A stretch of DNA of 64,000 nucleotides from a virus. Lineage: Duplodnaviria > Heunggongvirae > Uroviricota > Caudoviricetes. The stretch spans positions 59,759 through 123,758 of IMG/VR virus record IMGVR_UViG_3300025310_000004; one strand, written 5' to 3'. The translations under genes and the position numbers were made by a program. Of this stretch, positions 4,506-40,498 are shown one piece after another (positions within the stretch are counted from its first letter, which is position 1; every line of letters begins with the position of its first letter). Below the pieces are notes generated by a model. That model ran no database searches, was not told where the DNA came from, and saw only the letters and a list, made by a program, of their open reading frames with translations.

Positions 4506-5375
4506 GTGCGCGTGCAAGAAGTCGAGGCAGCAGAGCGGAAGTTGCCCAAGGGCCTGTCCCCCTCCTCGATGGAGATGTACCACCAGTGCCCAAGGCGCTT
4601 CGAGGTCCAGAAGATCGATGGTGGTTACGAGCCATCCGGGTATCCGGCCCTGCTCGGCACCTTCGTGCACCGCATCCTTGAGTTGTTGATGCAGCATCCT
4701 CCCGAGGAGCGCACCATCGAAACGGCCAAGGAGTGCGCCAAGAAGGCATGGCCTGAGACGGATGCCGACCCGGACTTCCAACTCCTGCAGTTGGATGAGG
4801 ATGCCAAGCGCAAGTTCCGTTGGTCAGGCTGGCACTCGGTGGAGAACTACTTCACCATGGAGGACCCGAAGTCAGTCGAGGTCGAAGCAACTGAGCAGTG
4901 GGTGGAGGCTCGGATCAACGGGGTGCTGATGCGCGGCATCATCGACCGTCTCGACCGCAACGACACCGGCCAACTCGTCATCTCTGACTACAAGAACGGC
5001 AAGGTCCCCGGTGAGCGCTATCGAGGCTCCAAGTGGGAGCAGTTGGCCTTCTACGCCGCGGTGGTTCAGGACAACCTCGGGATCACTCCCGTCCAAGGAC
5101 GCCTCATCTTCACCGCCCACGGCGAGGTGCTTGAAACCCCGATCAATGACGCTTCGGTCACCAAGGTCATCACCAAGGTCACCGCCACATGGTCAGACAT
5201 CGAGGCCGACTTCCATGAGCGTGGATTCAGGGCGACGCCCAACAACCTCTGCGGGTGGTGTCCGATCCTTCCGGGGTGCCCCGAAGGGATGGCGCACTGC
5301 TACATGCAGATGAAGAAGGGGCGGCTCAAGCAGACTGCTCCTGGTTACGCCGTCGTTCAGCAGTTGTCACGCTGA
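4506..5375 (+). CDS. Cas4/RecB-family PD-(D/E)xK exonuclease with Fe-S cysteines
   Basis: N-terminal YHQCPRRFE, ISDYKNGK (DxK motif), and C-terminal CGWCPILPGC three-Cys cluster. Confidence 0.75.
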   Translation: MRVQEVEAAERKLPKGLSPSSMEMYHQCPRRFEVQKIDGGYEPSGYPALLGTFVHRILELLMQHPPEERTIETAKECAKKAWPETDADPDFQLLQLDEDAKRKFRWSGWHSVENYFTMEDPKSVEVEATEQWVEARINGVLMRGIIDRLDRNDTGQLVISDYKNGKVPGERYRGSKWEQLAFYAAVVQDNLGITPVQGRLIFTAHGEVLETPINDASVTKVITKVTATWSDIEADFHERGFRATPNNLCGWCPILPGCPEGMAHCYMQMKKGRLKQTAPGYAVVQQLSR

Positions 5376-11400: not shown

Positions 11401-11546
11401 TGGTCATGAACTGTCTGCTCGCACTTCTTGAGGTTGAGGCCATGTCTGCGATGCAGCGCCCCCTGAGGGTTGGGCCGAACGGCTTGCGGGTCCCCAACGA
11501 GATGATCGAGCAGGCCCTTGAGCAGCACGAGAGGATTCCGACATGA
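8418..11546 (+). CDS. portal protein interrupted by an intein (Hint + LAGLIDADG-like endonuclease)
   Basis: 1042 aa. Portal-like exteins surround an insert that begins CFDDQTEVLTTEGW and has a WCP motif near its end. Confidence 0.6.
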   Translation: MPRSGPLRRVQLMTNRRLAGFAMARPQASAYATTAALTKIGDIKAPYGTVEAWQRDAYGYYEVIGEVGYIIGMTANTVAACEIRPIEVDNEVAPGGWRETGDERVLRVWNALVGPRGGKAELYRKASMNLQIAGECFLLGSPMEDEFGREAGISWEFISPEELKVENYGRTIKRNMGGYGGQQIVDLDPDAHYIARLWRSDPRFSDRPDCALKHVLPICREVVVLTQVVDAIAKSRLPAGILFVPDEMSFGPYDETEDDSDNTDEIDPFTQELIDHLTAPIEDRTSAASLVPLLMRGPAEFFDKVKLIDIAKELDTLYMELRQEAIHRLATGLDVPPEIMEGKGGLNHWCFDDQTEVLTTEGWKCLDEFEVGDVVLSLNHETGTTEWRPSVDMYVADVVDEPMLSIEGDRHSSLTTMDHRWPTLHRVRENVVDPETGRKTSRVVGQERIWTTSEKLNSNDSLIVGARSSEQPAEQKWSDELVEVAAWLWTEGNIRFRHQRVSPQIGIWQSIKVNPDNVARIRAALTGVFGPALESLTDGEVGRPTGDRREAAWVERIQPGRPDMVEFRLNASAADALVGLFDDPARKVLKLDFIRDLTVAQLELFIDTSIRADGTVLPAGTIHITQSDPDRLAPLELAAILSGRSTHLYETKQNGTMLSISPKTTFTLSRKQLRVVDYTGRIWCPTVPPYHSVLIRRNGKVAFTGQTGYNIDADFISKHVSPLGDMLSEFLTSAYLRPMLVEFEDMSEDEASQYRLLFDPSRITSRTDTGPNARAAYDRTELSRVAYLRESGFDEADAPDYDERKERDLRSLMAAEPIIFGPQVMGMLYPELEGELTLPESSGGNDGGDPGNPTDVPERKNDTGPSSRPVIDNETGQDEPMPRGPSGPRMEETIIDRLATGADAALERALERAGNRVLSKMNGAHVSMKDRFKSTPKTEIISGVSDRELSQLGLTLTDLFAGSWDNLAVRGKGWLRQHFIDQGIDNFTADEKAAMVMNCLLALLEVEAMSAMQRPLRVGPNGLRVPNEMIEQALEQHERIPT

Positions 11547-14500: not shown

Positions 14501-15232
14501 CCCAACGGACGCATCTACGGCCTCGTTGCTCGGTGGGGCACTTGCCACATCGGCTTCTCGGATCGTTGTGTCCAGGTGCCGCGGCCTCACGACGGCTACG
14601 CCAACTTCCGTTGTGGTCACGTCCTGACCGCAGAGGGCACGTTGGTCAGCACCGGCCCCATCTACGCCGACACCGTGCACCCCAGCCTCAAGATGAGCGC
14701 CAGCGACGCCCAGGCGTTCTACGCTCACACGGGTTGCGCTCTGGGTGATGTCGTGCTCTACGAGGGCGAGTTCGGCATCTTGGCCGCTGGTGCGGTCAAG
14801 TCCGATGCTCCCATCGAGGCAGTCAACCGCCTGCGCGCTGCCGGGGTTTCCCCCGACTGGCGCACCATCGATCGCAACCTTGAGATCGTCGGCCTGCTGT
14901 CGGTCAACGTCTCCGGGTTCCCGGTGTCCACCGCCCTCGTTGCGGCGGCTTCGGAGATCGGTGGCATCGTTCCCACGGTCGGCGGTGAGCCGAAGTGGGA
15001 GGTCGATCGTGGTGAGTTCACGTCGCTGGTGGCCGCTGGCTCGCTGATGCCGTGCACCAACTGCGGATCGCACTCCATCGACAACGGGACGGCTCTGGCC
15101 CTCCTTGAGATGCTGAACGATCACGCCATCAAGATCGCCGAGTTGAGCGAGGTTGTGCGCCCCTACCGCATGGAGCGGCTGGTGTCTCGCTTGACCGAAC
15201 TCGGCATCGGGAGTGATCGCTCCGACAGTTAG
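11543..15232 (+). CDS. polyprotein-like fusion: 2H phosphoesterase domain, 2x ~130-aa repeats, U35 prohead protease, C-terminal domain
   Basis: HLTLAY and HITLCY H-x-T/S-x motifs at the N-terminus. Repeats FQAVAIHHTPTSDGPWDG / FKAVPSHDTATIDPPTFTEWDG. Protease block EGVLIVEGLPSGDGRMID...PLMLQ..H. Confidence 0.6.
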   Translation: MSGKRWLGVEAAAARLKASYAADQPDHSAGIMACVRPNDPGRFVVEGGTPEEEVHLTLAYFGKVTDEEWTDSARQQIAEVISAEIAADREPIHGEITAVTTFELAGEDEPPLVLLVDAPGLGEMRAALVKSVNSALGSDQEIKSNHDFMPHITLCYGANDSEEAFAEGLIGEKVTFDSVELVWGTESSVWPLGSNRSDAISDSEAENGLRFEDTNAPQFAEPGAQEGEMPYEIVEKHPECSAGDPYAVVKSDDGELMGCHPSRQDAEEQMAALYQAEEGKEEDSIEASADPLAIVIGDEPTRDERLAAIDEFVAPKNGAGGGGASDDEDEEDDSESEDEVEIEVEVKDSESDDEESDDEEDMDAEGSAEFQAVAIHHTPTSDGPWDGPANEARAKSGESEDYYRNIFAWQDPEGDPETKAAWRFIHHEVSEDGTPGAANLRACSTGIGVLNGGRGGTTIPAADREGVYRHLAAHLADAEKEVPELTSLEGGEAMEAESTAEFKAVPSHDTATIDPPTFTEWDGDEAAKRARSGETPDYYNKIYAWVDSNGDPTNKTSYKFPHHVVSESGEPGAAVVWAVHSSIAVIDDSTIPTSDYQGVYNHLARHLRDAGVEDIPELGEDVASIDEVRAAIATMRARFHAMAAKAVQEASVSKSDITASDDLALVGEVVRRWFESVAKSEAKAVESDAAFAADDEAAISDCPCHDGVLEDGATHTEGCPFAKCDDEMAEEAPEGEEMPPEDDEVVVGDFKRGDYEWEGVLIVEGLPSGDGRMIDEGALTWRELPVPLMLQTINAGGHDGAVIAGSIHEIERVGHEIVGRGYFDSGEAGQEAKRLLSEGTMRGVSADIDSVVAELRDESGADVAMEDVLFGDPGNVMEVLTEGRIMGATMTPFPAFQEAHLKVIGKDDVDEDMVLVASGSKADGEVWRFTSPYPLVGRGGESYKVESLVASGGTVTELPVIPVHPPLAWFAAEDPELDPNMPFTVFPNGRIYGLVARWGTCHIGFSDRCVQVPRPHDGYANFRCGHVLTAEGTLVSTGPIYADTVHPSLKMSASDAQAFYAHTGCALGDVVLYEGEFGILAAGAVKSDAPIEAVNRLRAAGVSPDWRTIDRNLEIVGLLSVNVSGFPVSTALVAAASEIGGIVPTVGGEPKWEVDRGEFTSLVAAGSLMPCTNCGSHSIDNGTALALLEMLNDHAIKIAELSEVVRPYRMERLVSRLTELGIGSDRSDS

Positions 15233-18515: not shown

Positions 18516-19008
18516 TCTCTCGCTTGGTGAGCCGAGCGACGTAGGAGTGGTCCATGCTCAACTCCTCAGCGATCGCCCGGTAGGTCCATCCCTGGGAGCG
18601 CAACTCCACCATGCGGCGCAAGTCGTCGGGCGTCGTCCGGCGATACCCGGAGAAGTTGTCTCCCGCCGCCTTGCGGGCTCGGTACTCCCGCATGTAGGTG
18701 GCCTTCGCCGATGTCGATGGCACCCTGGGGTTGGTGGGCCTCGGCTTGCGGGTCGCGACCTTCTTGACGGGAGGGCTTGCGGCCTGCTCTGTCTTGGTGG
18801 CCTTCTTCCTCCTGGCGCACACCGAACAAGCGCAGTCGTTGCGACCTCGACACCGATGATGTGAGCCGGAGAGGCAGTTGGTGCAGGTGATCACGCCGCC
18901 ACCATAGCAATCCACTGAGACATGTCGCACCCATGATGTATGGTGTGGACCCCGACGAAAGGAGGCCCCCATGATCGACCTGCACGCTCTATTCGCACCC
19001 GACGACAT
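18481..19008 (-). CDS. Zn-finger + C-terminal HTH (sigma-70 region-4/LuxR-like) regulator
   Basis: N-terminal Cys clusters, basic linker and WTYRAIAEELSMDHSYVARL. The 3' end overlaps tRNA-Ser on the opposite strand. Confidence 0.55.
   Translation of the reverse strand: MSSGANRACRSIMGASFRRGPHHTSWVRHVSVDCYGGGVITCTNCLSGSHHRCRGRNDCACSVCARRKKATKTEQAASPPVKKVATRKPRPTNPRVPSTSAKATYMREYRARKAAGDNFSGYRRTTPDDLRRMVELRSQGWTYRAIAEELSMDHSYVARLTKREMAEGRGLEPQG
18923..18944 (+). promoter_or_regulatory. conserved promoter motif TGTCGCACCC-N6-TATGGT (copy 3)
   Basis: This copy has a ~20-nt leader with GAAAGGAGG SD before the ATG at 18971. Confidence 0.45.
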
Positions 19009-19849
19009 CCAGGCCGCTCTGGACGCTGGGCACCTGCTCTCGCAGACCCACCCCGAGTTCGACCTGACGATCTACAACTACTCGTCGCTGTGCCAGATCA
19101 GCCGCGCCTGGACCCCGGTCACCTCGTCGTGCCGGGGCATGATCGTCGGTCCCGACGGCAAGGTGCTGGCTCGGCCGTTCCCGAAGCGCTACAATCATCA
19201 GATGGCGCGATTCTCAAGCACCCCCGAAGCCGCAGCGATCGATCACGAGTTCTTTGGGACCGGGAAGCCCGAGGCTGATTGGCTAGCCGGGCTTGTGGCG
19301 GCGGATGGCTGCATCAAGAACGAGAAGTTCTGGACCATCACACAGTCGGGGGATCACGGACTTGAGTTGATTGAAGCGGTCAGGGGCATGATCAACCATG
19401 GCCTGTCTGTTGGTCACTACAAGCCCAAGCGGGGACGAGTGGCTCATTCGATCTACGTTCCGTCGGCCCAGATGGTGGCAGACCTGGCGACCAACTACAG
19501 CATCACGCCCCGTAAGAGCCTCACGTTGACTCCCCCCACATTGGACGAAAGTCGGTTCTCTAACTTCCTGAGGGGCTACATCGACGGAGACGGCACCGTG
19601 GGGAGATACTCGGTGGGGCGCTGTCCGAACTACCTGATCGTATGCTTGGTCGGAACCGAGGACTTCATCGAATCGGTACACCACCTCAACGAGTCCGGGC
19701 GCGTGAGGGAACTCAAGAGGGCCAAGAATACTTGGGAGATCAGGTTCAACGGGAATCACGCCGTTGACTTCTGTCGTCGGACATATGCGGCTGGGAGCGA
19801 CCTTCCTGTCACGACCAAGGCGAAGAAGGCTTTGGGAGCAATCGGATGA
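18971..19849 (+). CDS. LAGLIDADG homing endonuclease fused to a duplicated RNA-ligase N-terminal segment
   Basis: The first ~100 aa parallel the N-terminus of ORF 19846 (HPEFDL.IYNY...CRG.IV). Then LAGLVAADGCI and LRGYIDGDGTV dodecapeptide motifs. Confidence 0.6.
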   Translation: MIDLHALFAPDDIQAALDAGHLLSQTHPEFDLTIYNYSSLCQISRAWTPVTSSCRGMIVGPDGKVLARPFPKRYNHQMARFSSTPEAAAIDHEFFGTGKPEADWLAGLVAADGCIKNEKFWTITQSGDHGLELIEAVRGMINHGLSVGHYKPKRGRVAHSIYVPSAQMVADLATNYSITPRKSLTLTPPTLDESRFSNFLRGYIDGDGTVGRYSVGRCPNYLIVCLVGTEDFIESVHHLNESGRVRELKRAKNTWEIRFNGNHAVDFCRRTYAAGSDLPVTTKAKKALGAIG

Positions 19850-20940
19850 ATCACATTGGCGAGTTCTTGGATTTGGCCTCCCTGGATGCCCACATCGAAG
19901 CGGGCAACATCTCTCGATCCCCACATCACGAATTCGACCTCTACGTCCTGAACTACACGAACCAGGCGCAGTTCTCTCGCTCGTGGGACAACGAGACGCT
20001 TAATTGCCGGGGCCTGATTGTTGACTCGGGCGGTCTGGTCGTTGCTCGAAGTTGGGCCAAGTTCTTCAACCACACCGAGACGGCCGTCCCCAAGTACGCC
20101 CTGACCACGCCGCCCATCGTCACCGAGAAGATGGATGGCTCGCTGGGGATCATCTACCAGCGTCCCGATGGGCGCTTCGCCGTCGCCACGCGTGGCTCGT
20201 TCGCGTCTGACCAGGCCGTCTGGGCAACGCAGTGGCTCACCGTCGAGATGCCGGGGTTCATCCAGCCTGCTGGTGTGACCACCCTGGTGGAGATCATCTA
20301 CCCCGAGAACCGGATCGTTGTGGACTACGGCGACCGTGCGGAGTTGGTGCTGCTGGGTGCCATCAACATCGCCACCGGAGCCGACATCCCCCTGTGGGAG
20401 ATCGACTGGTGGCCTGGTGCTCGCGCCGAGATGCACACCGGCATCGGCCACATGGACGACGTGTACCGCTTCGCGACGGGCAACGAGAAGGAGAACGATG
20501 AGGGCATCGTGGCGGTCTGGTACCGCCCCGGCGAGCCGTCGTTCCGGCTCAAGGTGAAGCACCCCGAGTACGTCCGGCTCCACCGGATCATCACGGGCAT
20601 CAATACCAAGCGCGTCTGGGAGGTGCTGGCTTCTGGCGGCGACTTCTACGACGTACTGGATCGTGTCCCCGACGAGTTCTACGGCTGGGTCAAGGGGGTC
20701 ATCACTGACCTCCGCAACCAGTACCAGGACATCGAGGATGCGGTCTATGAGCAGTTCCAGATCATCTGCCTCAACACCGACGACGGCGACCGCAAGGGCT
20801 TCGCCGCCAAGGCCAAGGCCACGCCGTGGCCGGGGTTGATGTTCGCCCTGCTCGATGGCAAGGACATCGAGCGTGCCATCTGGGACATGATCAAGCCCAA
20901 GGCCGAGAAGCCCTTCGCTGACCAGGGTGAGGACACCTGA
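19846..20940 (+). CDS. RNA ligase (Rnl-type nucleotidyltransferase)
   Basis: KMDGSLG motif I lysine. Sits beside a Pnkp gene. Confidence 0.7.
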   Translation: MNHIGEFLDLASLDAHIEAGNISRSPHHEFDLYVLNYTNQAQFSRSWDNETLNCRGLIVDSGGLVVARSWAKFFNHTETAVPKYALTTPPIVTEKMDGSLGIIYQRPDGRFAVATRGSFASDQAVWATQWLTVEMPGFIQPAGVTTLVEIIYPENRIVVDYGDRAELVLLGAINIATGADIPLWEIDWWPGARAEMHTGIGHMDDVYRFATGNEKENDEGIVAVWYRPGEPSFRLKVKHPEYVRLHRIITGINTKRVWEVLASGGDFYDVLDRVPDEFYGWVKGVITDLRNQYQDIEDAVYEQFQIICLNTDDGDRKGFAAKAKATPWPGLMFALLDGKDIERAIWDMIKPKAEKPFADQGEDT

Positions 20941-21006
20941 TCCTCCCCTGGTCAGTGTCGCAGTGGTGTGCTACTATCACGCCACGCCAAGAGAGAGGAG
21001 ACACCC

Positions 21007-21864
21007 ATGGCACGACTCATCATCACCCGAGGTCTACCGGCATCGGGCAAGTCCACCTGGGCGATCGAGCAGATCGCCAAGAACCCCGGTCGCACCATCC
21101 GTGTCAACCGGGATGACATCCGCGCCTCGATCCATGGCGGCGGCAAGTGGTCCAAGACCAAGGAGAAGGCGACCGTTGCAGTTCGCGACGCCATGATCCG
21201 TGCTGGTCTGGCGCAGGGCCTCACGGTCATCTGCGACGACACGAACCTGCCCCAGAAGGTCGTGGACGACCTGACCTTCCTGGCGCACGAGGCCAAGGCC
21301 GATGTGCTGGTGCAGGACTTCACCCACGTCTCGCCCGAGGAGTGCATCAAGCGTGACCTCGCCCGTGAGCGCACGGTGGGGGCCGAGGTCATCATGCGGT
21401 GGTACAACGACTTTCTCAAGCCGGACATGACCGTCACCGTGGATGAGTCCAAGCCCAAGTGCGTCATCGTGGACGTGGACGGCACCCTCGCCCTCCACGT
21501 CGCTCGCGGCCCCTTCGAGTACGACAAGTGCTCGACGGACGCTCCCAATCCCCGTGTGGTCGAGTTGATCAAGATGCTCCGCTCGACCTACGAGGTGGTG
21601 GTGTGCTCTGGCCGTGAGGGCACCGATCAGTGCCGCGCTGACACCATCGAGTGGCTGCAGCGTCACGGCATCACCTTCTCGGGGTTCTTCATGCGCCCCG
21701 AGGGTGACATGCGGAAGGACGCCATCATCAAGCGCGAGATTCTGGAACGGGACATCCTCCCGCGCTGGAACCCTGTGCTGGTGGTGGACGACCGCGATCA
21801 GGTCGTCCGCATGTGGCGCGATGCCGGGCTGACCTGCTGGCAGGTCGCCGACGGCAACTTCTGA
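21007..21864 (+). CDS. pnkp: polynucleotide kinase-phosphatase (T4 Pnkp-like)
   Basis: N-terminal P-loop GLPASGKST and C-terminal HAD motif VIVDVDGTLA. Confidence 0.8.
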   Translation: MARLIITRGLPASGKSTWAIEQIAKNPGRTIRVNRDDIRASIHGGGKWSKTKEKATVAVRDAMIRAGLAQGLTVICDDTNLPQKVVDDLTFLAHEAKADVLVQDFTHVSPEECIKRDLARERTVGAEVIMRWYNDFLKPDMTVTVDESKPKCVIVDVDGTLALHVARGPFEYDKCSTDAPNPRVVELIKMLRSTYEVVVCSGREGTDQCRADTIEWLQRHGITFSGFFMRPEGDMRKDAIIKREILERDILPRWNPVLVVDDRDQVVRMWRDAGLTCWQVADGNF

Positions 21865-22684: not shown

Positions 22685-22754
22685 AGGCCAGCCACAGGGT
22701 GGACGGGAGTCTCCAAAACTCCTAGGCAGGGTTCGAGTCCCTGTTGGCCTGCCA
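22685..22754 (+). tRNA. tRNA-Trp(CCA) with shortened D-arm, CCA encoded
   Basis: Anticodon stem GGAGT/ACTCC. Anticodon loop CTCCAAA. Only 14 nt between acceptor and anticodon stem. Confidence 0.5.
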
Positions 22755-24566: not shown

Positions 24567-25256
24567 ATGAACGTGATCCTGCAAGGGGTTGTCGGCTCAA
24601 CCGCCTACGGCCTCGCTACCCCAACTTCCGACATCGACCGCCTCGGCGTGTTCCAAGCCCGCACCTCTGAGTTGCTGGGCCTGCATCCGCCCAAGGAGTC
24701 GCGCGTCTCGACCAACCCGGACGTGACCCACCACGAGTTGGGCAAGTTCGTGAAGTTGTGCCTGGCGAACAACCCCACGGTGATGGAGTTGCTCTGGCTT
24801 GACGAGTACGAGGTGATGACCCCCCTGGGTGAGCGCCTCATCGAGCATCGTCAGTCCTTCATGTCGCAGCGCATCCGCAAGACCTACGGTGGCTATGCCC
24901 GCCAGCAGTTCGAGCGGCTGATGCGTCGTGAGGAGGCCGAGCCGGGCGCTGGCTTCGCTGCCGACCTCAAGAAGCGCACCGAGAAGCACGCCCGCCACTG
25001 CTACCGCCTCATCCTGCAGGGCACCCATGCGCTTCGCACGGGTGAGTTGCGGGTGCGGCTGACTTCTGAGGAAGTTCAGATGTGCCGTGAGGCTGGGCTG
25101 ATGGCAGCCAATGACGTGGTGGAGTTCGGCAAGTCCGTCGAGATCGCCATGGCCGAGTTCGATGCCACCCCCACGGACCTCCCTGAGCATCCCGACGATG
25201 CGGACGCGAACTCGATGCTCGTGGTGGCTCGCACGCTCGATCTCACCGCTCCCTGA
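24567..25256 (+). CDS. Pol-beta-superfamily nucleotidyltransferase
   Basis: VVGSTAYGLATPTSDIDRLGVF GS..D.D motif. Confidence 0.65.
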   Translation: MNVILQGVVGSTAYGLATPTSDIDRLGVFQARTSELLGLHPPKESRVSTNPDVTHHELGKFVKLCLANNPTVMELLWLDEYEVMTPLGERLIEHRQSFMSQRIRKTYGGYARQQFERLMRREEAEPGAGFAADLKKRTEKHARHCYRLILQGTHALRTGELRVRLTSEEVQMCREAGLMAANDVVEFGKSVEIAMAEFDATPTDLPEHPDDADANSMLVVARTLDLTAP

Positions 25257-26682: not shown

Positions 26683-26762
26683 CGGGGCGTATACCCTCCG
26701 TCTGATAAGCGGTAGAAAGGTTAGTTGGTGACACGGAGGTTCAAATCCTCCCGCCCCGACCA
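26683..26762 (+). tRNA. atypical tRNA (possible Ile-GAT loop CTGATAA; D-region too short, long extra region), CCA encoded
   Basis: Acceptor CGGGGCG/CGCCCCG and a canonical T-arm. The internal region does not fold canonically. Confidence 0.3.
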
Positions 26763-26763
26763 T

Positions 26764-26925
26764 GGTGAGAGACAGGAAGGTACGAGGGTTCGATTCCCTC
26801 ACGCTCCACTCGTGGGGCGTCCGGTGGACTCCGGTGAAGTCGGTTCGATTCCGACGCCCCGTAGGGGTGATGGTCACGAATAGGGTCGCTCCCGCCGAGG
26901 TGGTTCGACTCCACCACTCTCACCA
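26764..26925 (+). ncRNA. three tandem tRNA-like T-arm/acceptor minihelices enclosed by an 8-bp terminal helix, ending CCA
   Basis: T-arms at ~26784, 26851 and 26905, spaced 54-67 nt apart. 5' GGTGAGAG pairs with 3' CTCTCACC. Confidence 0.4.
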
Positions 26926-27360: not shown

Positions 27361-27995
27361 CATGCGAGTTGAGATTCGCCCCGGTGAAGGGGGTGAGGAC
27401 GCCCAGCGCTTCGCCAAGGAGTGCCTTTGACGCGTTCTGCAAGGCGGCCCGCCGACGTGGGCTTGAGCCAGCAGTCAGCGAGTCCGCTCGCACCATGATC
27501 TTGGAGATCGCCGACATCTCCTTCCTTGAGCCCTTCGTCGGCACCCACCGCGTGCAGCGCATCCCCAAGGGGGAGCAGCGCCGTCACACCTCGACGGCCA
27601 CGGTTGCGATCGTCGGCCAGGTAGACAATGACGACTTCATCCCCGATGAGGAAATCGAGGAGCGGTTCGATCGCGGTGGCGGCAAGGGTGGCCAGCACCA
27701 GAACACCACCGACTCGGCGGTGACCCTCACCCACACCCCCACCGGGATCACGGTCCACATCGAGGGACGCAAGCAGTGGGGCAACCGCCAGGAAGCACGT
27801 CGGGTGCTATCCGAACGGGTAGCAGCCCATCGCCGAGCAGAGGCGTTGCGGATGTGCAACGACCAGCGGCGCGCCCAGATCAACCCGGAGCGCTCCGCCA
27901 AGTCGTTCACCCACAACACTCAGCGCAACGAGGTGGTGGACCACGACTCGGGTCGGTCGTGGCGGCTCACCGAGTTCCATAAGGGCAAGTTCTGA
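27361..27995 (+). CDS. prfH-like: class-I release-factor homologue lacking domain 1 (RF-H/PrfH-like); full length requires +1 frameshift at CUU UGA C
   Basis: Frame A gives MRVEIRPGEGGEDAQRFAKECL then TGA. The +1 frame continues DAFCKAARRRG...HRVQRIP...GGQHQNTTDSAVTLTHTPTGI. AAGGAG sits 3 nt upstream of CTT. Confidence 0.65.
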
Positions 27996-28017: not shown

Positions 28018-28827
28018 GTGCCGATGGCCAGGATGCTCGTACTCGGTGACACGCACGGCGACGTGAAGTTCTTGGAGCGCGCCTGCCGGATGGCCGTGAA
28101 GTCCGACTGCGACCGCATCGTCCAGGTCGGCGATTGGGGCTTCCTGTGGCCAGGAGCGAAGAACGATCGCCTCAAGGCGATCACCAACGTGTTGGCGCAG
28201 TTCGACCTCCACATGTTCTTCCTCGACGGCAACCATGAGTGGTATGGCCGCTTGGAGGAGATGGGGGCGACCCCCGATGCTCCCCACATGGTTGCGCTGT
28301 CGGATCGGGTCGCCTACTTGCCTCGTGGCTTCACTTGGGCTTGGGGCGGCGTGACCTTCATGTCGCTTGGCGGTGCCTTCTCCATCGACCAGGACCAGCG
28401 GACCAAGTTCATCGACTATTGGCCCCAGGAGACGATCCGTTACGCGGACGCTGACCGTGCCATTGCCGCTGGGCATGTGGACGTGATGTTCACCCACGAC
28501 GTTCCCGAGGGCGTTGTCAAGTTGGAGGCGATGCTGCATCGCGCCAGTGATCACTACCGGAGGTCCTACGGGGCCAAGTGGAACTACAAGTTGGACCCCG
28601 GCAGCCGGGCCAACCGCAAGACGTTGCGCGCCGTCGTTGACGAGGTGCAGCCCTTCTTGCTGATCCACGGCCACTACCACTGGCGCTACGACGACACCTT
28701 GGTGGGCGAGGACTACACCACCGAGGTGCGCGGCCTTGACTGCAACGGCTCGGGCGAGAGGGCCTGGGGAGTCGTGGATACGGCCGATGTCTTGAGATGG
28801 AGACTTGTCGTTGACGACGACGAATGA
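28018..28827 (+). CDS. calcineurin-like metallophosphoesterase
   Basis: GDTHGD, GDWG, DGNHE and GHYH motifs. Confidence 0.75.
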   Translation: MPMARMLVLGDTHGDVKFLERACRMAVKSDCDRIVQVGDWGFLWPGAKNDRLKAITNVLAQFDLHMFFLDGNHEWYGRLEEMGATPDAPHMVALSDRVAYLPRGFTWAWGGVTFMSLGGAFSIDQDQRTKFIDYWPQETIRYADADRAIAAGHVDVMFTHDVPEGVVKLEAMLHRASDHYRRSYGAKWNYKLDPGSRANRKTLRAVVDEVQPFLLIHGHYHWRYDDTLVGEDYTTEVRGLDCNGSGERAWGVVDTADVLRWRLVVDDDE

Positions 28828-31368: not shown

Positions 31369-31626
31369 ATGTACGGGTTCATGCTGTTCCTGGCCACGGT
31401 CGCCCTCGTAGCCTTCATTGTGGTCGCTTGCCTCGGCATCCGTTCGCAGTGGCGGGCGATGAGGGCATCCAGCGTCACGATCAAGCATGGCGAGGTTGAT
31501 CACAACCATCGAGAGATGGCTCGCCTGCTTGACGCCATGCTGGTCCAAGACGAGATGGTCCCGTACCTCAACGCTCACCACCGTGACCGCGCGAAGCAGT
31601 TGGTGGATGAGTTCCACTCCCCCTGA
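31369..31626 (+). CDS. small membrane protein (1 TM)
   Basis: MYGFMLFLATVALVAFIVVACLGI. Confidence 0.5.
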   Translation: MYGFMLFLATVALVAFIVVACLGIRSQWRAMRASSVTIKHGEVDHNHREMARLLDAMLVQDEMVPYLNAHHRDRAKQLVDEFHSP

Positions 31627-31636
31627 AAGGACCATC

Positions 31637-32542
31637 ATGAAGTACCGCTTGGCTGCGGTGTTCGCAGCACTTGTCGTCGTGCTCGCAGGTTGCACCTACG
31701 ACTCGACACAGAGCGACGAGGTGTCGTGCGCCTACGGTGGCGGCCCCTTCGAGTCGCCGCAGTTGAAGGAGGAACTCGACCCTGGATCGGGCCGCTCCTT
31801 CATCGGGGTGTTCGATGACACCTACCACTACCCGACTTCCCAGCGCACCTACGACATCAGCCCCGTCGAGGGCGAGGGTGACGAGCCGTCTCGCTCCGAC
31901 CTGATCATGGCACCGTCGTCTGACGACATCCGCATGGAGGTCGGCATGATCGTGCGGTTCAAGTTGAACACCAACATCGTGTGCGAGTTCCACGAGCAGG
32001 TCGGCCGCAAGTACGACGCCTGGACCGACGAGGGTTGGCGCAACATGCTGCGCGAGACGTTCCGTCGTCCCCTTGAGCGCTCGATTCAGGAGACGGTGCG
32101 TCGCAACGAGGGCCGCGCTCTCTACTCCAACGCTGATCTTCTGATCGAGGTCGAGCGTCAGGTCGGCACCGGACTCAAGGACAACATCAACCGCACCCTT
32201 GGTGCCGACTACTTCTGTGGCCCCGGCTTCCAGCATGGCGAGGAAGCCTGCCCCGAGTTCGAGGTGACGCTCACCCATCTGCAGCCCTCGGACCCATCGG
32301 CCCTGGTGGCCTTCGAGGCCGTCGAGATCGAGAAGGCCAACACCGCCGCGGCAGAGCAGAAGGTGCTCACCGCCGAGCAGGAGGCCCTCGCGATTCAGGA
32401 GTTGCAGGACGTGATGGCAAACGGCGGCAGCGCTGTGGCCCTGCTCGAAGCCGTGCGGTCCGGCAAGGTCACCTTCTGGGTGATCGATGGTGAGGGCCTG
32501 TCCGTGCAGGCACCTCCTCCCACGACGACCCCTGGTGGCTGA
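31637..32542 (+). CDS. lipoprotein with SPFH/band-7-like C-terminal region
   Basis: Lipobox LAGC after the signal peptide. AEQKVLTAEQEALAIQELQ region. Confidence 0.5.
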   Translation: MKYRLAAVFAALVVVLAGCTYDSTQSDEVSCAYGGGPFESPQLKEELDPGSGRSFIGVFDDTYHYPTSQRTYDISPVEGEGDEPSRSDLIMAPSSDDIRMEVGMIVRFKLNTNIVCEFHEQVGRKYDAWTDEGWRNMLRETFRRPLERSIQETVRRNEGRALYSNADLLIEVERQVGTGLKDNINRTLGADYFCGPGFQHGEEACPEFEVTLTHLQPSDPSALVAFEAVEIEKANTAAAEQKVLTAEQEALAIQELQDVMANGGSAVALLEAVRSGKVTFWVIDGEGLSVQAPPPTTTPGG

Positions 32543-33036: not shown

Positions 33037-33099
33037 GTCGTTCGGATCATCTTCCGAGAAACCCCTTGCAGGTGTCTCACTCGTTTGCTAGAGTTTGCT

Positions 33100-33790
33100 C
33101 TAGTTCGCAAGACCCCAGACCGCAAGGACGGGGCACTACAACTGAATAGATCGCAGCAGCAGCGTTGCGTAGGAACGGGTTACTTCTCCTGTTAAGAGAG
33201 TGGAGAGGGTTCGACTCCCTCCGGGGCCGCCAACATGGTCCCGTGGTGTAACGGCCAGCACACTAACCGTCACCTGATCCGCCGAGTTCTCGCTGCTGCT
33301 CAATCGCACGACGACGTTGCGAAGCGTTGGGATACTTCCGGTACCACTTTCACCGGGCCTACCTCGTGGTCGAGGACCTGCACTCCGTTGCAGGAAGTGG
33401 GGTTCGATTCCCCGGCTCTCCTCCTGATGCGCCAAGTTCTCGTCGTCGCACCACCTCGGTGGCGATGCGTAGCGTTGGGATACTTCGGTAACACAGGTTC
33501 GACTCCTGTCGGCCAGAGCAATCTGGTTTGGCCCCACTTCGGAGGGGCATCGAGTCCTCGGACTCAACAGCACTCCTGATGCGCCAAGTTCACGCCACCA
33601 AGATGTGGGACGTTGCGAAGGTCCGGGTTACTTCTGGCTTCCAATCAGACCCAACACCTGTACCGACGAGTTCTCGTCCCCTCAACCGCTGGTGGCGGTG
33701 GCGATGCGAAGCCATGGGTTACTTCATCTTGGAACGAACACCTGCGGCGACCAAGTTCACGCCACTGCACCCAGCCCAACCGAAAGGAGC
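33100..33790 (+). ncRNA. tandem array of Y-RNA-like repeats with tRNA-like T-arm modules upstream of Ro60 gene
   Basis: Four to five ~150-bp units share GTTGCG(A/T)AG..GGGTTACTTC and CCTGATGCGCCAAGTTC. T-arms at ~33204, 33397 and 33494. Confidence 0.5.
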
Positions 33791-33796
33791 ACCACC

Positions 33797-35404
33797 ATGG
33801 CCAAGTTCTCGAACACCAAGCCCGCGCCGCGCAAGCGTGCGACGGCCCCGACGAAGGTGACCGGCACCCGCCTCGCTACGCACGAGGGCGGCACCGGCTA
33901 CGCCAAGGACGACAAGACGGCCCTCTACACGCTGGCCGTCACCAACATGGTCGGCGAGCCGACCTTCTACGAGTCCGGCAAGGACCGTGACGACCGCTTC
34001 CGCACCCTGGTGCGGCGCGTGACCACGCAGGACCCCACCTGGGTCGCCGGGTTCATCGGCTTCCTCCGCAACGAGGCCAACATGCGGTCGGCATCGATCG
34101 TCGTGGCTGCCGAGGCGGCCAAGACCCTGCTCGACCTGCGCGCCAAGGGCGTCGAGGTGGACGGCAACGTGCGCTCAATCATCGCTTCGGCGTGCGAACG
34201 TGCCGATGAGCCTGCAGAGATGCTGGGCTACTGGCTCGCCAACTACGGCCGCGCCCTGCCCATGGGCGTCAAGCGCGGCATCGGCGACGCGGCTGTGCGT
34301 CTCTACACCGAGCGCAACGCTCTCAAGTACGACGGCGGAAGCCGTGGCGTGCGGATGGGCGACGTGCTCAACCTGACCCACCCCACCCCTGGTGCGGCCT
34401 GGCAGTCGGACCTGTTCCGCTACCTGCTGGACCGCCGTCACGGGCACGCCGAGGGCGTGGTCCCCGAGACGCTGGCGACCATCCTCGCCGCAACCGACCT
34501 CGACGCGACCCCCGAGGGTCAGCGTCGTGCGCTCCTGCGTGAGCGTGGCCCCGAGGCTCTGGCCGACGCGGGCTACACCTGGGAGCGCCTGAGCGGCTGG
34601 CTGCCCGGCGGCATGGACGCCGAGGCGTGGGAGGCCATCATCCCCTCGATGGGGTATATGGCCCTGCTGCGGAACCTCCGCAACTTCGAGCAGGCCAAGG
34701 TGGAGAAGGCCGTCCTCAAGGGCGTGGCCGACCACCTGGCTGACCCCGAGGCTGTGGCCAAGAGCCGTCAGTTCCCGTACCGCTTCTTCTCGGCGTGGAA
34801 GGCGTCGGGCAGCACCTTCTTCGGTGCTGCGCTTGAAGCGGCGCTGGACGAGTCGGTCAAGAACCTCCCGATCTTCTCGGGGCGCACCCTGGTCGCCATC
34901 GACACCAGCGGCTCGATGCAGTCGCCCGTGTCGGGCCGCAGCCAGGCGCAGTGCTACGAGGTGGGCGCGCTGTTCGGCTCTGCCGTGGCCGCTCGCTCCG
35001 ACTGCGACGTGATCCTCTACGCGGATCGCTGGGACTGGTTCACCCCCGAGGTGTCCGTCCTGCGTTCGGTGGAGAAGGTCCGTCGTCTGATCGGCGAGGT
35101 CGGGTACGGCACCAACACCTGGCCGTCCGTCGCCCAGGCGTTCGCCAACAAGGGCGGCTATGACCGCATCGTGGTCATGACCGACTGCCAGGACCACCCG
35201 GCTCGTGGTGGCCTCTACGGCCACCGCGACACCAGCACGCTGCCGGATGTCCCGATCTACGTCTGGGACCTCCGCGGCTACGAGGCCACCAACATCGACA
35301 ACACGCCGGGGCGCTACCTGTTCGGAGGCTTCTCCGACGCGGCGTTCAAGATGATCGCTCTCATCGAGCGCGGTCAGAACGCCGAGTGGCCCTGGCTCGA
35401 CTGA
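33797..35404 (+). CDS. rsr: Ro60/Rsr orthologue (TROVE domain + vWA domain)
   Basis: N-terminal TROVE-like region and C-terminal vWA MIDAS DTSGSM. GAAAGGAG SD. Confidence 0.75.
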   Translation: MAKFSNTKPAPRKRATAPTKVTGTRLATHEGGTGYAKDDKTALYTLAVTNMVGEPTFYESGKDRDDRFRTLVRRVTTQDPTWVAGFIGFLRNEANMRSASIVVAAEAAKTLLDLRAKGVEVDGNVRSIIASACERADEPAEMLGYWLANYGRALPMGVKRGIGDAAVRLYTERNALKYDGGSRGVRMGDVLNLTHPTPGAAWQSDLFRYLLDRRHGHAEGVVPETLATILAATDLDATPEGQRRALLRERGPEALADAGYTWERLSGWLPGGMDAEAWEAIIPSMGYMALLRNLRNFEQAKVEKAVLKGVADHLADPEAVAKSRQFPYRFFSAWKASGSTFFGAALEAALDESVKNLPIFSGRTLVAIDTSGSMQSPVSGRSQAQCYEVGALFGSAVAARSDCDVILYADRWDWFTPEVSVLRSVEKVRRLIGEVGYGTNTWPSVAQAFANKGGYDRIVVMTDCQDHPARGGLYGHRDTSTLPDVPIYVWDLRGYEATNIDNTPGRYLFGGFSDAAFKMIALIERGQNAEWPWLD

Positions 35405-35476
35405 GCACAACGCTCACCATGAAGTGCATGAAGCCCCTCCCCACCGGGAGGGGCTTCTGCCGTTACAGGAGACAAT

Positions 35477-35677
35477 ATGCAACTCAACGGACACAAGATC
35501 AGGCGGCTACGCGAAGATGCCGGGATGACTGCACGGGACCTTTGCCGAGCCGCCTCGATCTCACCACCCTTCTTGAGCCAGATCGAAGGTGGCACTCGCA
35601 ACTGCTCGCCCCCGGTGGCAGCACGACTCGCAGCAGCACTTGAAGTAGCCATCGTGGACTTGAGGGAGGACGACTGA
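35477..35677 (+). CDS. XRE-family HTH transcriptional regulator
   Basis: LREDAGMTARDLCRAASISPPFLSQIEGG. Confidence 0.7.
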   Translation: MQLNGHKIRRLREDAGMTARDLCRAASISPPFLSQIEGGTRNCSPPVAARLAAALEVAIVDLREDD

Positions 35678-38709: not shown

Positions 38710-39945
38710 ATGGGTATCGCACCTGAAACTGTCGTGGCCCCTCCGGCTACCACGCCGCCGCTGCACTCGTTGATTGCGTCGGCGGTCGTTGTCGATGAGC
38801 CGGAGGGTTCTCGGTGGGAGGCTGGCTTCTCCTTCCAGCCCGAGAACTGCATTGAGGCTGAGGCATGGAACCCATGTGGTGAGTGCAACCCAGCCATTCT
38901 CTATCTCTACATCTGCGCCGGGTCGGGCACCTTCACCGTCACTTGGTACGGCGAGTCCACCCCCGCGCTGCCCTACAACGTCTCGGCCGAGGACTTCGAG
39001 ACGGCTCTCAACGACCTGATCCTCGTGGCCCTAGGTTCTCCCGAGGTGGTCGTGGAGGTTACGGGCGGCCCTGGTGCACCCAGCGAGCCCGAGCCCTACA
39101 TCATCACCCTGTCTGGCCCCATCCTCGACACCTACTGCGAGACGGGAGTTCCTCCGGCCTTCGAGCCATTCACCACCGACGGCGATCTTGCTGATGGCGA
39201 GTGCAAGAACACCGTCTACGGTGGCACGTTCCAAGAGCCTGGTCCCTACAAGGTCAACAAGAAGTCCTACGACGGCAACCAGGATGAGGTGGACTACGAG
39301 CCCTTCATCATCGAGGTGCCCTACACCTGCTCGACGTTCGGCTTCCAGGCGGCCGACTACGAGAAGCGCGCTCGTCGGCAGTTGATGGCGACGATGCACA
39401 AGGCGTTGGAGAACGAGTTCTGGACGGGCTCGATCAACCCCACCAACCTTTCGCTGGTTGGCTCGACGCCCAACGACGACGCCCACATCCTCAACCCTGG
39501 TGGGGCGGCTGCTCCGGTTGCGGTTAGCCCCGGCGTCGCCCTCATGCTGCTGTCCCAGGCGCTCGCGAACTGCGGCTCCGGTGGACGCGGCATGATCCAT
39601 GCCACTCCGGCCACCGTTGAGCGCTGGATCAACCTCACCAACGTCCGCTGTGACGACAAGTTGATCCAGACCTGCTCGCGTGGCGACATCATCGTCAACG
39701 GATCGGGCTACCCCGGCACCGGCCCCGAGGGCCAGCCAGCGCCCGGCCCCAACGAGGTGTGGGCCTACGCCACCGGCATGGTCAACATCCGACTCGGTGA
39801 TCCTGAGGTGTACCCCAAGGAGTTCGCCGAGGCGATCGACCGCAAGACCAACACCGTGACCTACCGAGGAGAGATCGTCGCATCTGCTGTTCATGATCTG
39901 TGCTGCTCGTTCGCAGTCCTGATCGACCTGTGCGGCACGGTCTGA
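38710..39945 (+). CDS. hypothetical structural protein (Cys-rich)
   Basis: 411-aa ORF in the structural block. Confidence 0.45.
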   Translation: MGIAPETVVAPPATTPPLHSLIASAVVVDEPEGSRWEAGFSFQPENCIEAEAWNPCGECNPAILYLYICAGSGTFTVTWYGESTPALPYNVSAEDFETALNDLILVALGSPEVVVEVTGGPGAPSEPEPYIITLSGPILDTYCETGVPPAFEPFTTDGDLADGECKNTVYGGTFQEPGPYKVNKKSYDGNQDEVDYEPFIIEVPYTCSTFGFQAADYEKRARRQLMATMHKALENEFWTGSINPTNLSLVGSTPNDDAHILNPGGAAAPVAVSPGVALMLLSQALANCGSGGRGMIHATPATVERWINLTNVRCDDKLIQTCSRGDIIVNGSGYPGTGPEGQPAPGPNEVWAYATGMVNIRLGDPEVYPKEFAEAIDRKTNTVTYRGEIVASAVHDLCCSFAVLIDLCGTV

Positions 39946-39955
39946 GGGGGTCCAG

Positions 39956-40498
39956 ATGAGCCTCGGCGCTCCCATCCCAGAGTGCGTCGTCAGCCCCGGC
40001 GACAACTGCCTGCCAGTGCAGGTCATGGTGCTGTGCGATCAGCACCCACCGCCCGACGCTGGTGATGGCGCTCTCGTTCCCTTCATCCGTGAGTTCCAGT
40101 TCAACTGCGACACGGGTGCTCTGATCGGGTTCAACGACTACGACTTCGATGGTGCTCCCTACTCGGTCATCGGCACCGTGCAGGACTGCGCCGCGTCTGC
40201 TGTGGTCGATGCCGACAACCCGGTCAACATTCGACGCGAGAACTTGGTCGGCCCTTCTGCCTGGTCGCCGTCGCCTTGCACCATCGCCGTGACGGTGAAG
40301 GTGCGTGCCGTTGGTGTGGCTGGATCGGTCACCTTCACCGACGAACAGGGAATCGTCTCGGACATGTTCGTTGGTGACGAGGAGTCATGGCGTTCGCCGA
40401 GCGACGTTCCCTTCTACGGCTCCGCTACCGTCACCCTCACCGACCCCGGCGACCTCGTGACCGTCATCTGGTCCGAGGTGCCTGGATGCGCGGGCTGA
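39956..40498 (+). CDS. repeat-motif protein, paralogue of the two downstream fibre-like genes
   Basis: Shares the VLCD...NDYDFDGAPYSVIGTV motif. Confidence 0.45.
   Translation: MSLGAPIPECVVSPGDNCLPVQVMVLCDQHPPPDAGDGALVPFIREFQFNCDTGALIGFNDYDFDGAPYSVIGTVQDCAASAVVDADNPVNIRRENLVGPSAWSPSPCTIAVTVKVRAVGVAGSVTFTDEQGIVSDMFVGDEESWRSPSDVPFYGSATVTLTDPGDLVTVIWSEVPGCAG

Follow-up and report, generated by a model that had tools for sequence, protein, structure and literature searches.

What do the tandem repeats in front of the Ro60 gene of this phage encode? The stretch of DNA analyzed here (the window, 64,000 nucleotides) carries five tandem units at positions 33155–33775 of the + strand, directly 5' of the Ro60 gene. 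We read them as five tandem Y RNA genes, the predicted noncoding partners of the downstream Ro60, with a probability of about 85%. As judged from the sequence, the units are best read as Y RNAs of the YrlA and YrlB types. This reading draws on sequence motifs, structure supported by covariation, linkage to Ro60, and homology to YrlA-type units. Megablast of the locus and 24 kb of the window against the INPHARED phages gave no match, and the high-GC phage is undescribed.

The gene at 33797–35404 (+ strand) encodes a Ro60/Rsr orthologue of 535 residues with a TROVE domain (a HEAT-repeat ring) and then a vWA domain, an identity proposed in an earlier note on this DNA and upheld by Pfam and Protein Data Bank matches. 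The TROVE domain is significant in Pfam (7.5e-15), and the vWA_Ro60 match (4.2e-5, 24 bits) lies slightly under the cut-off of 27.7. The vWA domain has the MIDAS motif DxSxS as AIDTSGS, with the pattern DTSGS...T...D present. Comparison with the TROVE proteins 9l5y/9kop in the Protein Data Bank gives 1.5e-29, and the protein is 36–45% identical to actinophage proteins annotated as 'Ro-like RNA binding protein'. The start at MAKF is kept in relatives. A ribosome-binding site, GAAAGGAG (33782–33789, + strand), can be read from the sequence 7 nt 5' of the ATG, and comparable purine-rich sites precede the Ro60 starts of relatives.

The units lie 22–642 nt upstream of Ro60 on the + strand. The earlier note had counted four to five units of about 150 bp; there are five, and their lengths are uneven, three measuring 138–146 nt with T-arms and two 74–88 nt without. 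All follow one plan, in which a closing stem leads into a 5' block (UGCGWAG-N4-GGGWUACUUC), a variable module, and a 3' block (CCUG...RAGUUCWCG). The 5' block, block A (TGCGWAGNNNNGGGWTACTTC), has five matches in the 64-kb window, where chance would give 0.01, all of them on the + strand and within 33166–33725. The 3' block, block B (CCTGNNNCGNCRAGTTCWCG), matches four times against 0.34 expected in the same window, and a fifth copy, 1 nt longer, is found at about 33741–33761. T-arms of the form GGTTCGAnTCC occur at 33207–33219, 33400–33412, and 33495–33507. The tandem Y-RNA-like repeats, shared blocks, and T-arms described earlier are all present, positions included. Units 2, 4, and 5 have UGCGAAG as their 5' motif, whereas units 1 and 3 have UGCGUAG; the YUAY position reads UUAC in units 1, 4, and 5 and AUAC in units 2 and 3. 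A block-A-like match at 23085 was discarded; it has the wrong spacing, lacks the 3' block and the closing stem, and is seemingly coding on the minus strand.

Tandem Repeats Finder reported nothing on the array because only the two blocks, not whole units, are conserved. Rfam at its gathering score reported tRNAs alone, and neither ARAGORN nor the Rfam tRNA model called a canonical tRNA, with its 7-bp acceptor stem and 7-nt anticodon loop, in 33037–33796. The claim that the 690 bp upstream of Ro60 contain no ORF is not strictly true, as mechanical ORFs of 110–145 residues overlap the array on both strands; these have no family matches.

Unit 1 (33155–33300, + strand) is the putative YrlA-type Y RNA of the array and folds at -63.5 kcal/mol (z -3.15). 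Its ends form a closing stem of 10 bp (AGCAGCAGCG/CGCUGCUGCU), inside which lie block A (33166–33186) and block B (33273–33292). Between the blocks, a T-arm (33205–33221), an acceptor-like stem-loop (33222–33243), and a D-arm (33246–33261) follow one another, an order found in unit 1 only among the five. The acceptor-like stem has 7 bp, and its loop contains G-CCA at 33229–33232. The tRNA-like 3' end with CCA noted previously is confirmed, the T-arm being followed by CGGGGCC-G-CCA at 33222–33232. The T-arm is identical to that of the phage tRNA-Leu(cag) at 21/21 positions, and the D-arm matches the phage tRNA-Gln. The Rfam YrlA model aligns the T, acceptor-stem, and D elements of this unit, yet the score is 15.6 bits.

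Unit 2 (33309–33448, + strand; fold z -2.25) combines the Y scaffold with a hairpin and a mini-cloverleaf. The closing stem has 8 bp (CGACGACG/CGUCGUCG), block A spans 33318–33338, and block B spans 33423–33442. The mini-cloverleaf is in canonical order, with a 5-bp acceptor, a D arm, a 6-bp arm with a 6-nt loop, and a T-arm (33399–33413), and the module also forms a cloverleaf when folded alone. It scores 26.3 bits (E 0.009) against Rfam tRNA-Sec, under the gathering score, and ARAGORN made no tRNA call on the unit. Its T-arm is identical to that of the phage tRNA-Ser(gga) at 23/25 positions, and the acceptor strand also matches the phage tRNA-Ser. Unit 3 (33458–33599, + strand; -60.5 kcal/mol, z -2.97) repeats the Y scaffold, with block A at 33466–33486 and block B at 33575–33594. 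This scaffold is nearly identical to that of unit 2, but the closing stem and the module differ, the latter consisting of a T-arm (33493–33509) and then three hairpins, with the D-arm absent.

The last two units are short, YrlB-like, and devoid of a tRNA-like module. Unit 4 (33607–33680, + strand) has block A at 33614–33634, block B at 33657–33676, and a closing stem of 6 bp. Alone it folds no better than shuffled sequence (z -0.99); its support comes from its place, in register, in the covarying alignment. Unit 5 (33688–33775, + strand; fold z -2.45) has block A at 33705–33725 and a core stem in which 33696–33703 pairs with 33760–33767, extending outward to 33688/33775.

All five units have closing stems of 6–10 bp, and covariation supports them. 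In a core alignment of 26 units the closing stem is 89% paired, a percentage inflated by the choice of each 3' partner partly through its inner 6-bp complementarity; nevertheless, the chosen position falls in every case on the 3' block, which is conserved independently. Both partners change in seven of the eight pairs. The covariation score of 0.538 compares with 0.181 for shuffled data, 0/500 of which reach 0.538, and it falls to 0.14–0.22 when the partner strand is slid. For the middle helix, which was aligned without adjustment of the register, 67% of positions are paired and 7/9 pairs change on both sides. UGCG and UACUUC are invariant across the 26 units. A full-length alignment of units with the T-arm, acceptor-stem, D-arm order (14 sequences, namely unit 1 and 13 others, that of mycobacteriophage Bxz1 included) shows compensatory changes in 21/24 predicted pairs.

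The same architecture recurs at other Ro60 loci. Block A is present on the Ro60 strand in 11/11 related phage loci examined, in 2–6 copies per locus, with one copy detected in Atuin, and the architecture is found at about 40 of 59 Acidimicrobiia Ro60 loci. It is nearly always upstream of Ro60 and always on the same strand. The closest relative, L004, has a Ro60 that is 81% identical with the same MAKFSNTK start; it contains no counterpart of unit 2, and the encoded CCA in the acceptor-like loop is absent there. The proposal of Y-RNA-like genes partnered with Ro60 is supported by architecture conserved at Ro60 loci, by covarying stems, and by the alignment of unit 1 with YrlA-type units.

Several tRNA calls in the relatives were considered and set aside. 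In L016, an apparent full tRNA nested in a Y scaffold, a possible parallel to unit 2, is a separate gene after the unit. Weak tRNA-model matches starting on block A in L052 and L018, and an ARAGORN tRNA call in L004, were read as the tRNA-resembling 5' half of a Y unit.

How closely do these units resemble the Y RNAs already described? YrlA is known from Salmonella Typhimurium, Mycobacterium smegmatis, and mycobacteriophages such as ET08 (PMC4201824; Rfam RF02553), and Chen et al. (2014, PMC4201824) found it in 254 bacteria and 22 phages, on the Ro60 strand and no more than 4 kb from the gene. Like YrlA, the array adjoins Ro60 on the same strand, and the ends of each RNA would pair into a long stem. 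YrlA has two landmarks, a GNCGAAN0-1G motif near the 5' end and then YUAY, with which the variable loop begins (PMC4201824). Block A has the YUAY element and, ahead of it in the right place, a motif that is similar to GNCGAAN0-1G in part. Unit 1 further shares the permuted tRNA mimic, in which a T-arm precedes an acceptor-like stem-loop and a D-arm, and its 7-bp acceptor-like stem is of the same length as that in M. smegmatis YrlA, which is cleaved by RNase P. There are also differences. The array motif is UGCG(A/U)AG rather than GNCGAAN0-1G, with U instead of the initial G and, in two units, U instead of the first A. The 3' block RAGUUCWCG is conserved here, whereas only a 5' strand can be recognized in the RNAs of Salmonella and M. 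smegmatis (PMC4201824). Unit 1 has a genome-encoded CCA in its acceptor-like loop, and there are five units instead of one YrlA plus one YrlB.

The earlier note had proposed a search with Y RNA covariance models, with the absence of matches counting against the idea. Unit 1 reaches 15.6 bits against RF02553, far under the gathering score of 69, and the other units give no match. Taken to the letter, this outcome would count against the idea, but the test is too strict, because Bxz1 too reaches just 32.5 bits (E 1.6e-4). Bxz1 is a cluster-C relative of ET08, from the cluster that was the source of the first published phage YrlA. Its units carry the 5' motif GCCGAAG or GCCGAGA, and unit 1 can be aligned with a Bxz1 unit end to end. 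In homologous units of the relatives, YrlA is the best non-tRNA Rfam match (28–33 bits, E about 1e-3 to 3e-2), and in 20 Acidimicrobiia loci no YrlA match passes the gathering score. The Rfam YrlA model under-covers the clade of actinophages and Acidimicrobiia.

YrlB of S. Typhimurium and M. smegmatis is a second, shorter RNA bound by Ro60 and encoded next to YrlA; in M. smegmatis it is located between YrlA and rsr and derived from the same precursor (PMC4201824). Units 4 and 5 resemble it in being short, nearest to Ro60, and built on the same putative Ro-binding scaffold. M. smegmatis YrlB, as described, includes a possible T-arm, which is missing from units 4 and 5. With Deinococcus radiodurans Yrn1 and the metazoan Y RNAs the array shares a predicted helix for Ro60 binding, in which the two ends of the RNA pair and sequence is conserved on both strands. 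The module of unit 2 is also similar to Yrn1 as verbally described, where D- and T-like elements follow the order of a tRNA and the loop of an anticodon-like arm has 6 nt; metazoan Y RNAs, in contrast, are without tRNA-like modules.

The array comes after the 37-tRNA array of the phage. On the same strand are genes for an Rnl1-type RNA ligase (19846–20940), PNKP, RlaP, a 2H phosphoesterase, an RF-1-domain protein, and a Band-7 protein, along with the 37 tRNAs; the SPFH gene (31487–32542) is two genes upstream of Ro60, and an HTH gene (35477–35677) is downstream. A tRNA-like RNA, a Band-7/SPFH protein, and an RNA ligase also occur together in the b7a-tRNA system, a likeness of gene neighborhood only, and the ligase there is RtcB rather than of the Rnl1 type.

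Between the stop codon of the dCMP deaminase gene and unit 1 is a conserved leader (33037–33154, + strand), 83% identical to L004 329–471, which on its own shows no significant fold (z -0.36). It contains a putative promoter-like element (33066–33094, + strand), with TTGCAG (33066–33071) and TAGAGT (33089–33094) separated by a 17-nt spacer. This is a weak consensus match, and a strict sigma-70 scan of the locus did not find a promoter. GTTTGCTAGAGT and the leader that follows it are kept in L004 despite a different upstream gene, and in L005 TTGACA and TACAGT, 17 nt apart, stand immediately before the first unit. Downstream of the Ro60 stop codon, a GC-rich hairpin of 12 bp (35430–35457, + strand; fold z -5.20) is likely the terminator. 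A terminator consensus scan did not list it because it is without a U-tract, and the sole match in that scan was an irrelevant minus-strand hairpin inside the gene.

Three other explanations of the repeats were weighed against the Y RNA reading. The earlier note had pointed out that several repeat copies echo the first codons of Ro60, suggesting pairing or an attenuator-like link. The repeats would then be a cis-regulatory leader of the Ro60 mRNA, with the 3' block recurring at the start codon and pairing, competing, or binding Ro60, leading to attenuation or autoregulation. The echo itself is real, as unit 2 shares the 12-nt GCCAAGTTCTCG with Ro60 codons 2–5 and the other units share 8–9 nt. 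Moreover, the array is in the probable 5' UTR, and the extended stem of unit 5 ends 21 nt before the ATG. The regulatory link finds no support in relatives, since the echo is restricted to the window: in L004, where the 3' blocks read CTTGATCTCG or CTTGAACACG, the shared string is 5–6 nt, and in L005, L008, pSt2308, and BRock it is just 4–6 nt. Relatives keep the N terminus M-[A/S]-K-F of Ro60 regardless of the form of their 3' block, and GCC-AAG-TTC follows from the conserved M-A-K-F peptide and GC-rich codon choice. Nor is there a sixth scaffold, as the 5' block is absent between unit 5 and the ATG. We consider such a leader very improbable.

That the units are decaying tRNA genes or debris of the tRNA array, with no Ro60-related function, would agree with their position after the 37 tRNAs, with T-arms near those of the phage's own tRNAs (21/21 in unit 1 and 23/25 in unit 2), and with the ARAGORN miscall on the 5' half of the L004 unit. 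However, the sequence of blocks A and B is not that of a tRNA and is conserved across phages with Ro60 proteins just 36–50% identical, the closing stems covary, and units 4 and 5 are wholly without a tRNA-like part. The units also track Ro60 rather than tRNA arrays, for L053 and L005 have arrays without any called tRNA in the examined locus. An origin as debris thus appears very improbable. Five spaced copies of a motif of about 20 bp could also resemble an operator or iteron array acting as DNA, for example as regulator sites for the HTH protein encoded downstream. Yet what has been conserved is the ability of distant segments to pair, through compensatory changes, which is a hallmark of RNA. 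The array also always runs in the same direction as Ro60, and the motif is linked to Ro60 amid entirely different neighboring genes; a role as DNA sites is hardly credible.

Under the Y RNA reading, the transcription, processing, Ro60 binding, and biological role of the array RNAs are what we infer. The Ro60-binding module would consist of the paired RNA ends, an asymmetric internal loop whose 5' strand carries UGCG(A/U)AG and whose 3' strand carries RAGUUCWCG, and a helix of 9 bp ending in (U/A)UACUUC. To this each RNA would add a variable effector module, which is a permuted tRNA mimic in unit 1 and another T-arm module in units 2 and 3; units 4 and 5 are the short, YrlB-like RNAs. The array and Ro60 most likely form one transcript, from the promoter at about 33066–33094 to the hairpin at 35430–35457. 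The RNAs would then probably be cut from a common precursor, as happens in M. smegmatis, where YrlA and YrlB lie upstream of rsr and come from a single precursor (PMC4201824). They would attach to the Ro60 ring on its outer face, where they may gate Ro60 or tether it to partner enzymes that deal with damaged or misfolded RNA during infection. Such a role fits the RNA-repair and translation island of the phage.

A more speculative idea, which we regard as rather unlikely, is that the RNAs are interchangeable Ro60 adaptors. One Ro-binding scaffold would carry differing effector modules put together from parts of tRNAs that the phage itself encodes. Each module would bring Ro60 to its own partner or substrate, or would act as a decoy for host defense nucleases that cleave tRNA. 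If this were true, the Ro60/Y ribonucleoprotein would be part of the tRNA-repair counter-defense of the phage. Points noted beside this idea are the near identity of the unit 2 and 3 scaffolds and the matches of unit 1 parts to tRNA-Leu and tRNA-Gln and of unit 2 to tRNA-Ser. The module of unit 2, as a non-permuted mini-tRNA, is also outside the YrlA definition.

Y RNAs adjacent to Ro60 are already established in bacteria and (mycobacterio)phages, and this locus is a well-supported, fairly ordinary new example; with Y RNAs known in 22 phages since 2014, it opens no new category. Arrays of 2–6 Y RNA genes appear to be common in the genomes of actinophages and Acidimicrobiia. A covariance model specific to this clade, which the current Rfam YrlA model misses, would recover many such RNAs. 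The locus is also a compact natural experiment, with one scaffold and five modules beside an RNA ligase, PNKP, RlaP, and tRNA genes. It lends itself to studying the function of Y RNA effector modules during infection. The GenBank phage records inspected leave the Y RNA arrays unannotated, and tRNA calls or spurious small ORFs have sometimes been placed over them.

A gap of 760 nt separates the stop codon of a dCMP deaminase gene from the ATG of the Ro60 gene, and five direct-repeat units on the + strand lie within it (33155-33300, 33309-33448, 33458-33599, 33607-33680 and 33688-33775), so the repeats reported in the earlier note are real. They had been counted as four to five units of ~150 bp; there are five, but their sizes are uneven, 138-146 nt in three and 74-88 nt in two. 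The region had also been described as free of ORFs, and although mechanical ORFs overlap the array, none has a family match. The conserved 5' motif of each unit, block A (TGCGWAG-N4-GGGWTACTTC), occurs five times in the whole window, always inside the gap, against an expectation of 0.01. The conserved 3' block, block B, gives four matches (0.34 expected), and its fifth copy is 1 nt longer. The three T-arms and the CCA end were found as noted, the latter as CGGGGCC-G-CCA following the first T-arm. The downstream gene (33797-35404, + strand) encodes a 535-aa Ro60 orthologue with a TROVE match (7.5e-15), a weak vWA_Ro60 match and a MIDAS DTSGS motif; its match to TROVE proteins in the PDB is at 1.5e-29.

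When each unit is folded alone, all five share a scaffold. The two ends of the unit form a closing stem of 6-10 bp, followed by an asymmetric internal loop, whose 5' strand reads N-UGCG(A/U)A and whose 3' strand has about ten bases with GUUC(U/A) at their end, then a 9-bp helix, a conserved UACUUC and a variable module. The unit 1 module comprises a T-arm (33205-33221), a 7-bp stem-loop (33222-33243) with the loop G-CCA-ACAU, and a D-arm (33246-33261), all on the + strand. Unit 2 is predicted to carry a hairpin and then a small cloverleaf whose arms follow the usual tRNA order, its acceptor being 5 bp and its "anticodon" loop 6 nt long; unit 3 a T-arm and three hairpins; and units 4 and 5 a short loop or hairpin only. 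The conserved blocks of unit 2 (33318-33338 with 33423-33442) and unit 3 (33466-33486 with 33575-33594) are nearly identical (20/21 and 21/22 nt), and their closing stems and effector modules are unrelated. Since the related IMG/VR locus L004 has a single unit with this type of scaffold, the arrangement points to a recent duplication after which modules were replaced.

The fold is supported by covariation. In a scaffold alignment of 26 units, in which a linker stands in for each variable module, 89% of the closing stem is paired and seven of its eight pairs change on both sides. A caveat is that complementarity over the inner 6 bp helped to place the 3' partner, although in every case this partner adjoins the 3' block, whose conservation is independent. 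The overall covariation score is 0.538, compared with 0.181 ± 0.020 in shuffles (none of 500 reaches 0.538) and with 0.14-0.22 after sliding the partner strand by 1-3 columns. A second, full-length alignment contained 14 units with the order T-arm, acceptor-like stem, D-arm, taken from unit 1, L004, L005 (also from IMG/VR), pSt2308, BRock, three Acidimicrobiia loci, L053 and Bxz1. Its consensus fold consists of the closing stem, T-arm, 8-bp acceptor-like stem and D-arm, with compensatory changes in 21 of the 24 predicted pairs.

YrlA RNAs, reported in 254 bacteria and 22 phages, are encoded on the Ro60 strand no more than 4 kb from the gene; near the 5' end they have a GNCGAAN0-1G motif, and they also share a conserved YUAY and a tRNA-like domain in the order T, acceptor-like stem, D (Chen et al. 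2014, PMC4201824). The window units agree with this description in location, stem and YUAY, and unit 1 also in domain order; their 5' motif is the close variant UGCG(A/U)AG. On unit 1 the Rfam YrlA model scores only 15.6 bits. It gives 28-33 bits on homologous units of relatives, exceeds its gathering score in none of 20 Acidimicrobiia loci, and gives 32.5 bits on Bxz1, which belongs to the mycobacteriophage cluster that yielded the first description of phage YrlA. In Bxz1 the Ro gene is preceded by three tandem units of this design. Because these relatives also score low, the Rfam result reflects limited model coverage and is no evidence against membership among Y RNAs. The Ro60 linkage, covarying stems and YrlA-type features together support the earlier reading of the repeats as Y RNAs, and on sequence grounds the array is a well-formed further example of the known Y RNA/Ro60 arrangement. 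Its variant features are the five units, the heterogeneous modules, the canonical-order mini-tRNA in unit 2 and the conserved 3' block. The array is useful mainly for annotation and as an experimental system.

Relatives of the Ro60 gene were collected from deposited phages (Streptomyces pSt2308, BRock and Quantum; Arthrobacter Atuin; Gordonia Rabbitrun and VanLee), IMG/VR (L004, 81% identity; L005-L009, 41-52%) and GTDB genomes (59 loci, nearly all from Acidimicrobiia MAGs, 37-56%). Block A lies on the Ro60 strand, and with few exceptions upstream of the gene, in about 40 of the 59 bacterial loci and in all 11 phage loci with enumerated units, the latter having 2-6 copies each (one detected in Atuin); for VanLee the pattern used gave no match. 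The deposited records inspected carry no annotation for these RNAs. Three to five unannotated Y-like units precede Ro-like genes in the deposited actinophages Rabbitrun (1421-2001), Bxz1 (39762-40244), BRock, L001 and L012. The Rabbitrun units are overlapped by hypothetical CDS gp93 and gp94 and by the annotated Ro start (1953), which are thus probably mis-annotations. In Acidimicrobiia, 10-17 densely arrayed tRNA genes with interspersed Y units precede Ro60 (for example L017 1-2400, L018 89-2158 and L052 232-2165), and since some lie on Mb-size contigs these loci may be chromosomal islands or prophages. That the closest cellular relatives of the phage Ro60 are all Acidimicrobiia hints at a host in this class.

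A promoter-like element, TTGCAG-17-TAGAGT (33066-33094, + strand), precedes the array, and this element and the leader are 83% conserved with L004 despite different upstream genes. L005 has a near-consensus TTGACA-17-TACAGT directly before its first unit. No terminator-like element was found between unit 5 and the Ro60 ribosome-binding site, and a 12-bp GC hairpin follows the gene, so that a single precursor is expected. It would carry all five Y RNAs and the Ro60 mRNA and be processed as in M. smegmatis, where YrlA and a shorter YrlB upstream of rsr derive from one precursor and YrlA, with a 7-bp acceptor stem, is cleaved by RNase P and gains CCA (PMC4201824). Because Y units lie between true tRNAs in the Acidimicrobiia arrays, tRNA-processing enzymes probably contribute to their release.

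Several repeats had been thought to echo the first Ro60 codons and to pair with or attenuate them. The identity exists, as GCCAAGTTCTCG (12 nt) is common to unit 2 and codons 2-5, but the proposed pairing or attenuator role is unsupported, since the N-terminal M-[A/S]-K-F is kept in relatives whose 3' blocks differ. L004 starts with MAKFSNTK and has the 3' blocks CTTGATCTCG and CTTGAACACG, and pSt2308 and BRock start with MAKFN and have TTTTCTAG; the longest string shared by 3' block and Ro60 start is down to 4-6 nt in such relatives. The resemblance is best explained as a conserved peptide in GC-rich codons that overlaps by chance with a conserved RNA motif.

The modules resemble the phage's own tRNAs: the unit 1 T-arm and flank match tRNA-Leu(cag) at 21/21 positions, its D-arm matches tRNA-Gln(ttg) at 13/13, and for tRNA-Ser(gga) 23/25 positions agree with the T-arm and acceptor strand of unit 2. 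Such resemblance is in line with a published proposal that derives YrlA from dimeric tRNA transcripts, but T-arms are alike among tRNAs generally, which makes it suggestive only. ARAGORN calls a tRNA-Glu(ttc) at L004 459-530, which we reject as a true tRNA, as the sequence spans the closing-stem strand, block A, V hairpin and T-arm that make up the 5' half of Y unit 1. Weak Rfam tRNA matches also start on block A at L052 2213-2276 and L018 1542-1610. Such calls fit an origin of the scaffold from tRNA, and make the 5' halves of Y units a source of false tRNA annotations.

In D. radiodurans and S. Typhimurium a Y RNA tethers Ro60 to PNPase, and a role of Ro60/Y RNA alongside RNA ligases has been proposed. 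By analogy, the window Y RNAs would probably gate or tether the phage Ro60, with damaged or misfolded RNAs as substrates during infection. A role in RNA repair or counter-defence is suggested by the neighbouring genes for the ligase, PNKP, RlaP, tRNAs and Band-7. They belong to an RNA-repair and translation island (11543-32542) with 37 interleaved tRNA genes (17.9 to 31.2 kb), which encodes a 1229-aa protein with a 2H/2'-5' RNA ligase-like (2H-phosphoesterase) domain (11543-15232), a LAGLIDADG-like ORF (18971-19849), an Rnl1-type RNA ligase (19846-20940), PNKP (20968-21864), RlaP (24567-25256), an RF-1-domain protein (27369-27995), a metallophosphoesterase (28018-28827) and an SPFH/Band-7 protein (31487-32542). 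HNH endonuclease and tape-measure genes lie further downstream, and all genes listed are on the + strand. The segment has a GC content of ~62-65%. Megablast found no near relative among 50,697 deposited phages, and the identical sequence is known solely as an assembled contig from run SRR5581334.

Outside all ARAGORN and Rfam tRNA calls, the + strand of the window also has nine T-arm-like hairpins with a 5-bp stem and a TTCRANN loop, at 22727, 25825, 26345, 26735, 26784, 26839, 26899, 27281 and 30299; four are packed into 26735-26915, too tightly for full tRNAs. A small tRNA/tmRNA-like element at 26684-26811 (GGGGCG...GGAGGTTCAAATCCTCCCGCCCCGACCA), much shorter than a normal tmRNA, reaches 25.3 bits with the Rfam tmRNA model (E 3e-8; gathering score 47), in an alignment that deletes most of the model. 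Downstream of the Ro gene in BRock, two tRNA-Lys genes flank a near-threshold Rfam manA RNA match (4579-4742; 49.7 bits against a gathering score of 55.2, E 4.9e-10), which overlaps a CDS annotated as 'collagen triple helix repeat'. The largest array among the loci examined belongs to L053, a Thermotogae-binned contig of 76 kb: six tandem units upstream of Ro60 (1712-2480), in a fetched locus where no tRNA was called. Among its 3' blocks are CUUGAUCUCG and CUUGACCUCG, similar to the metazoan CUUGACUAG.
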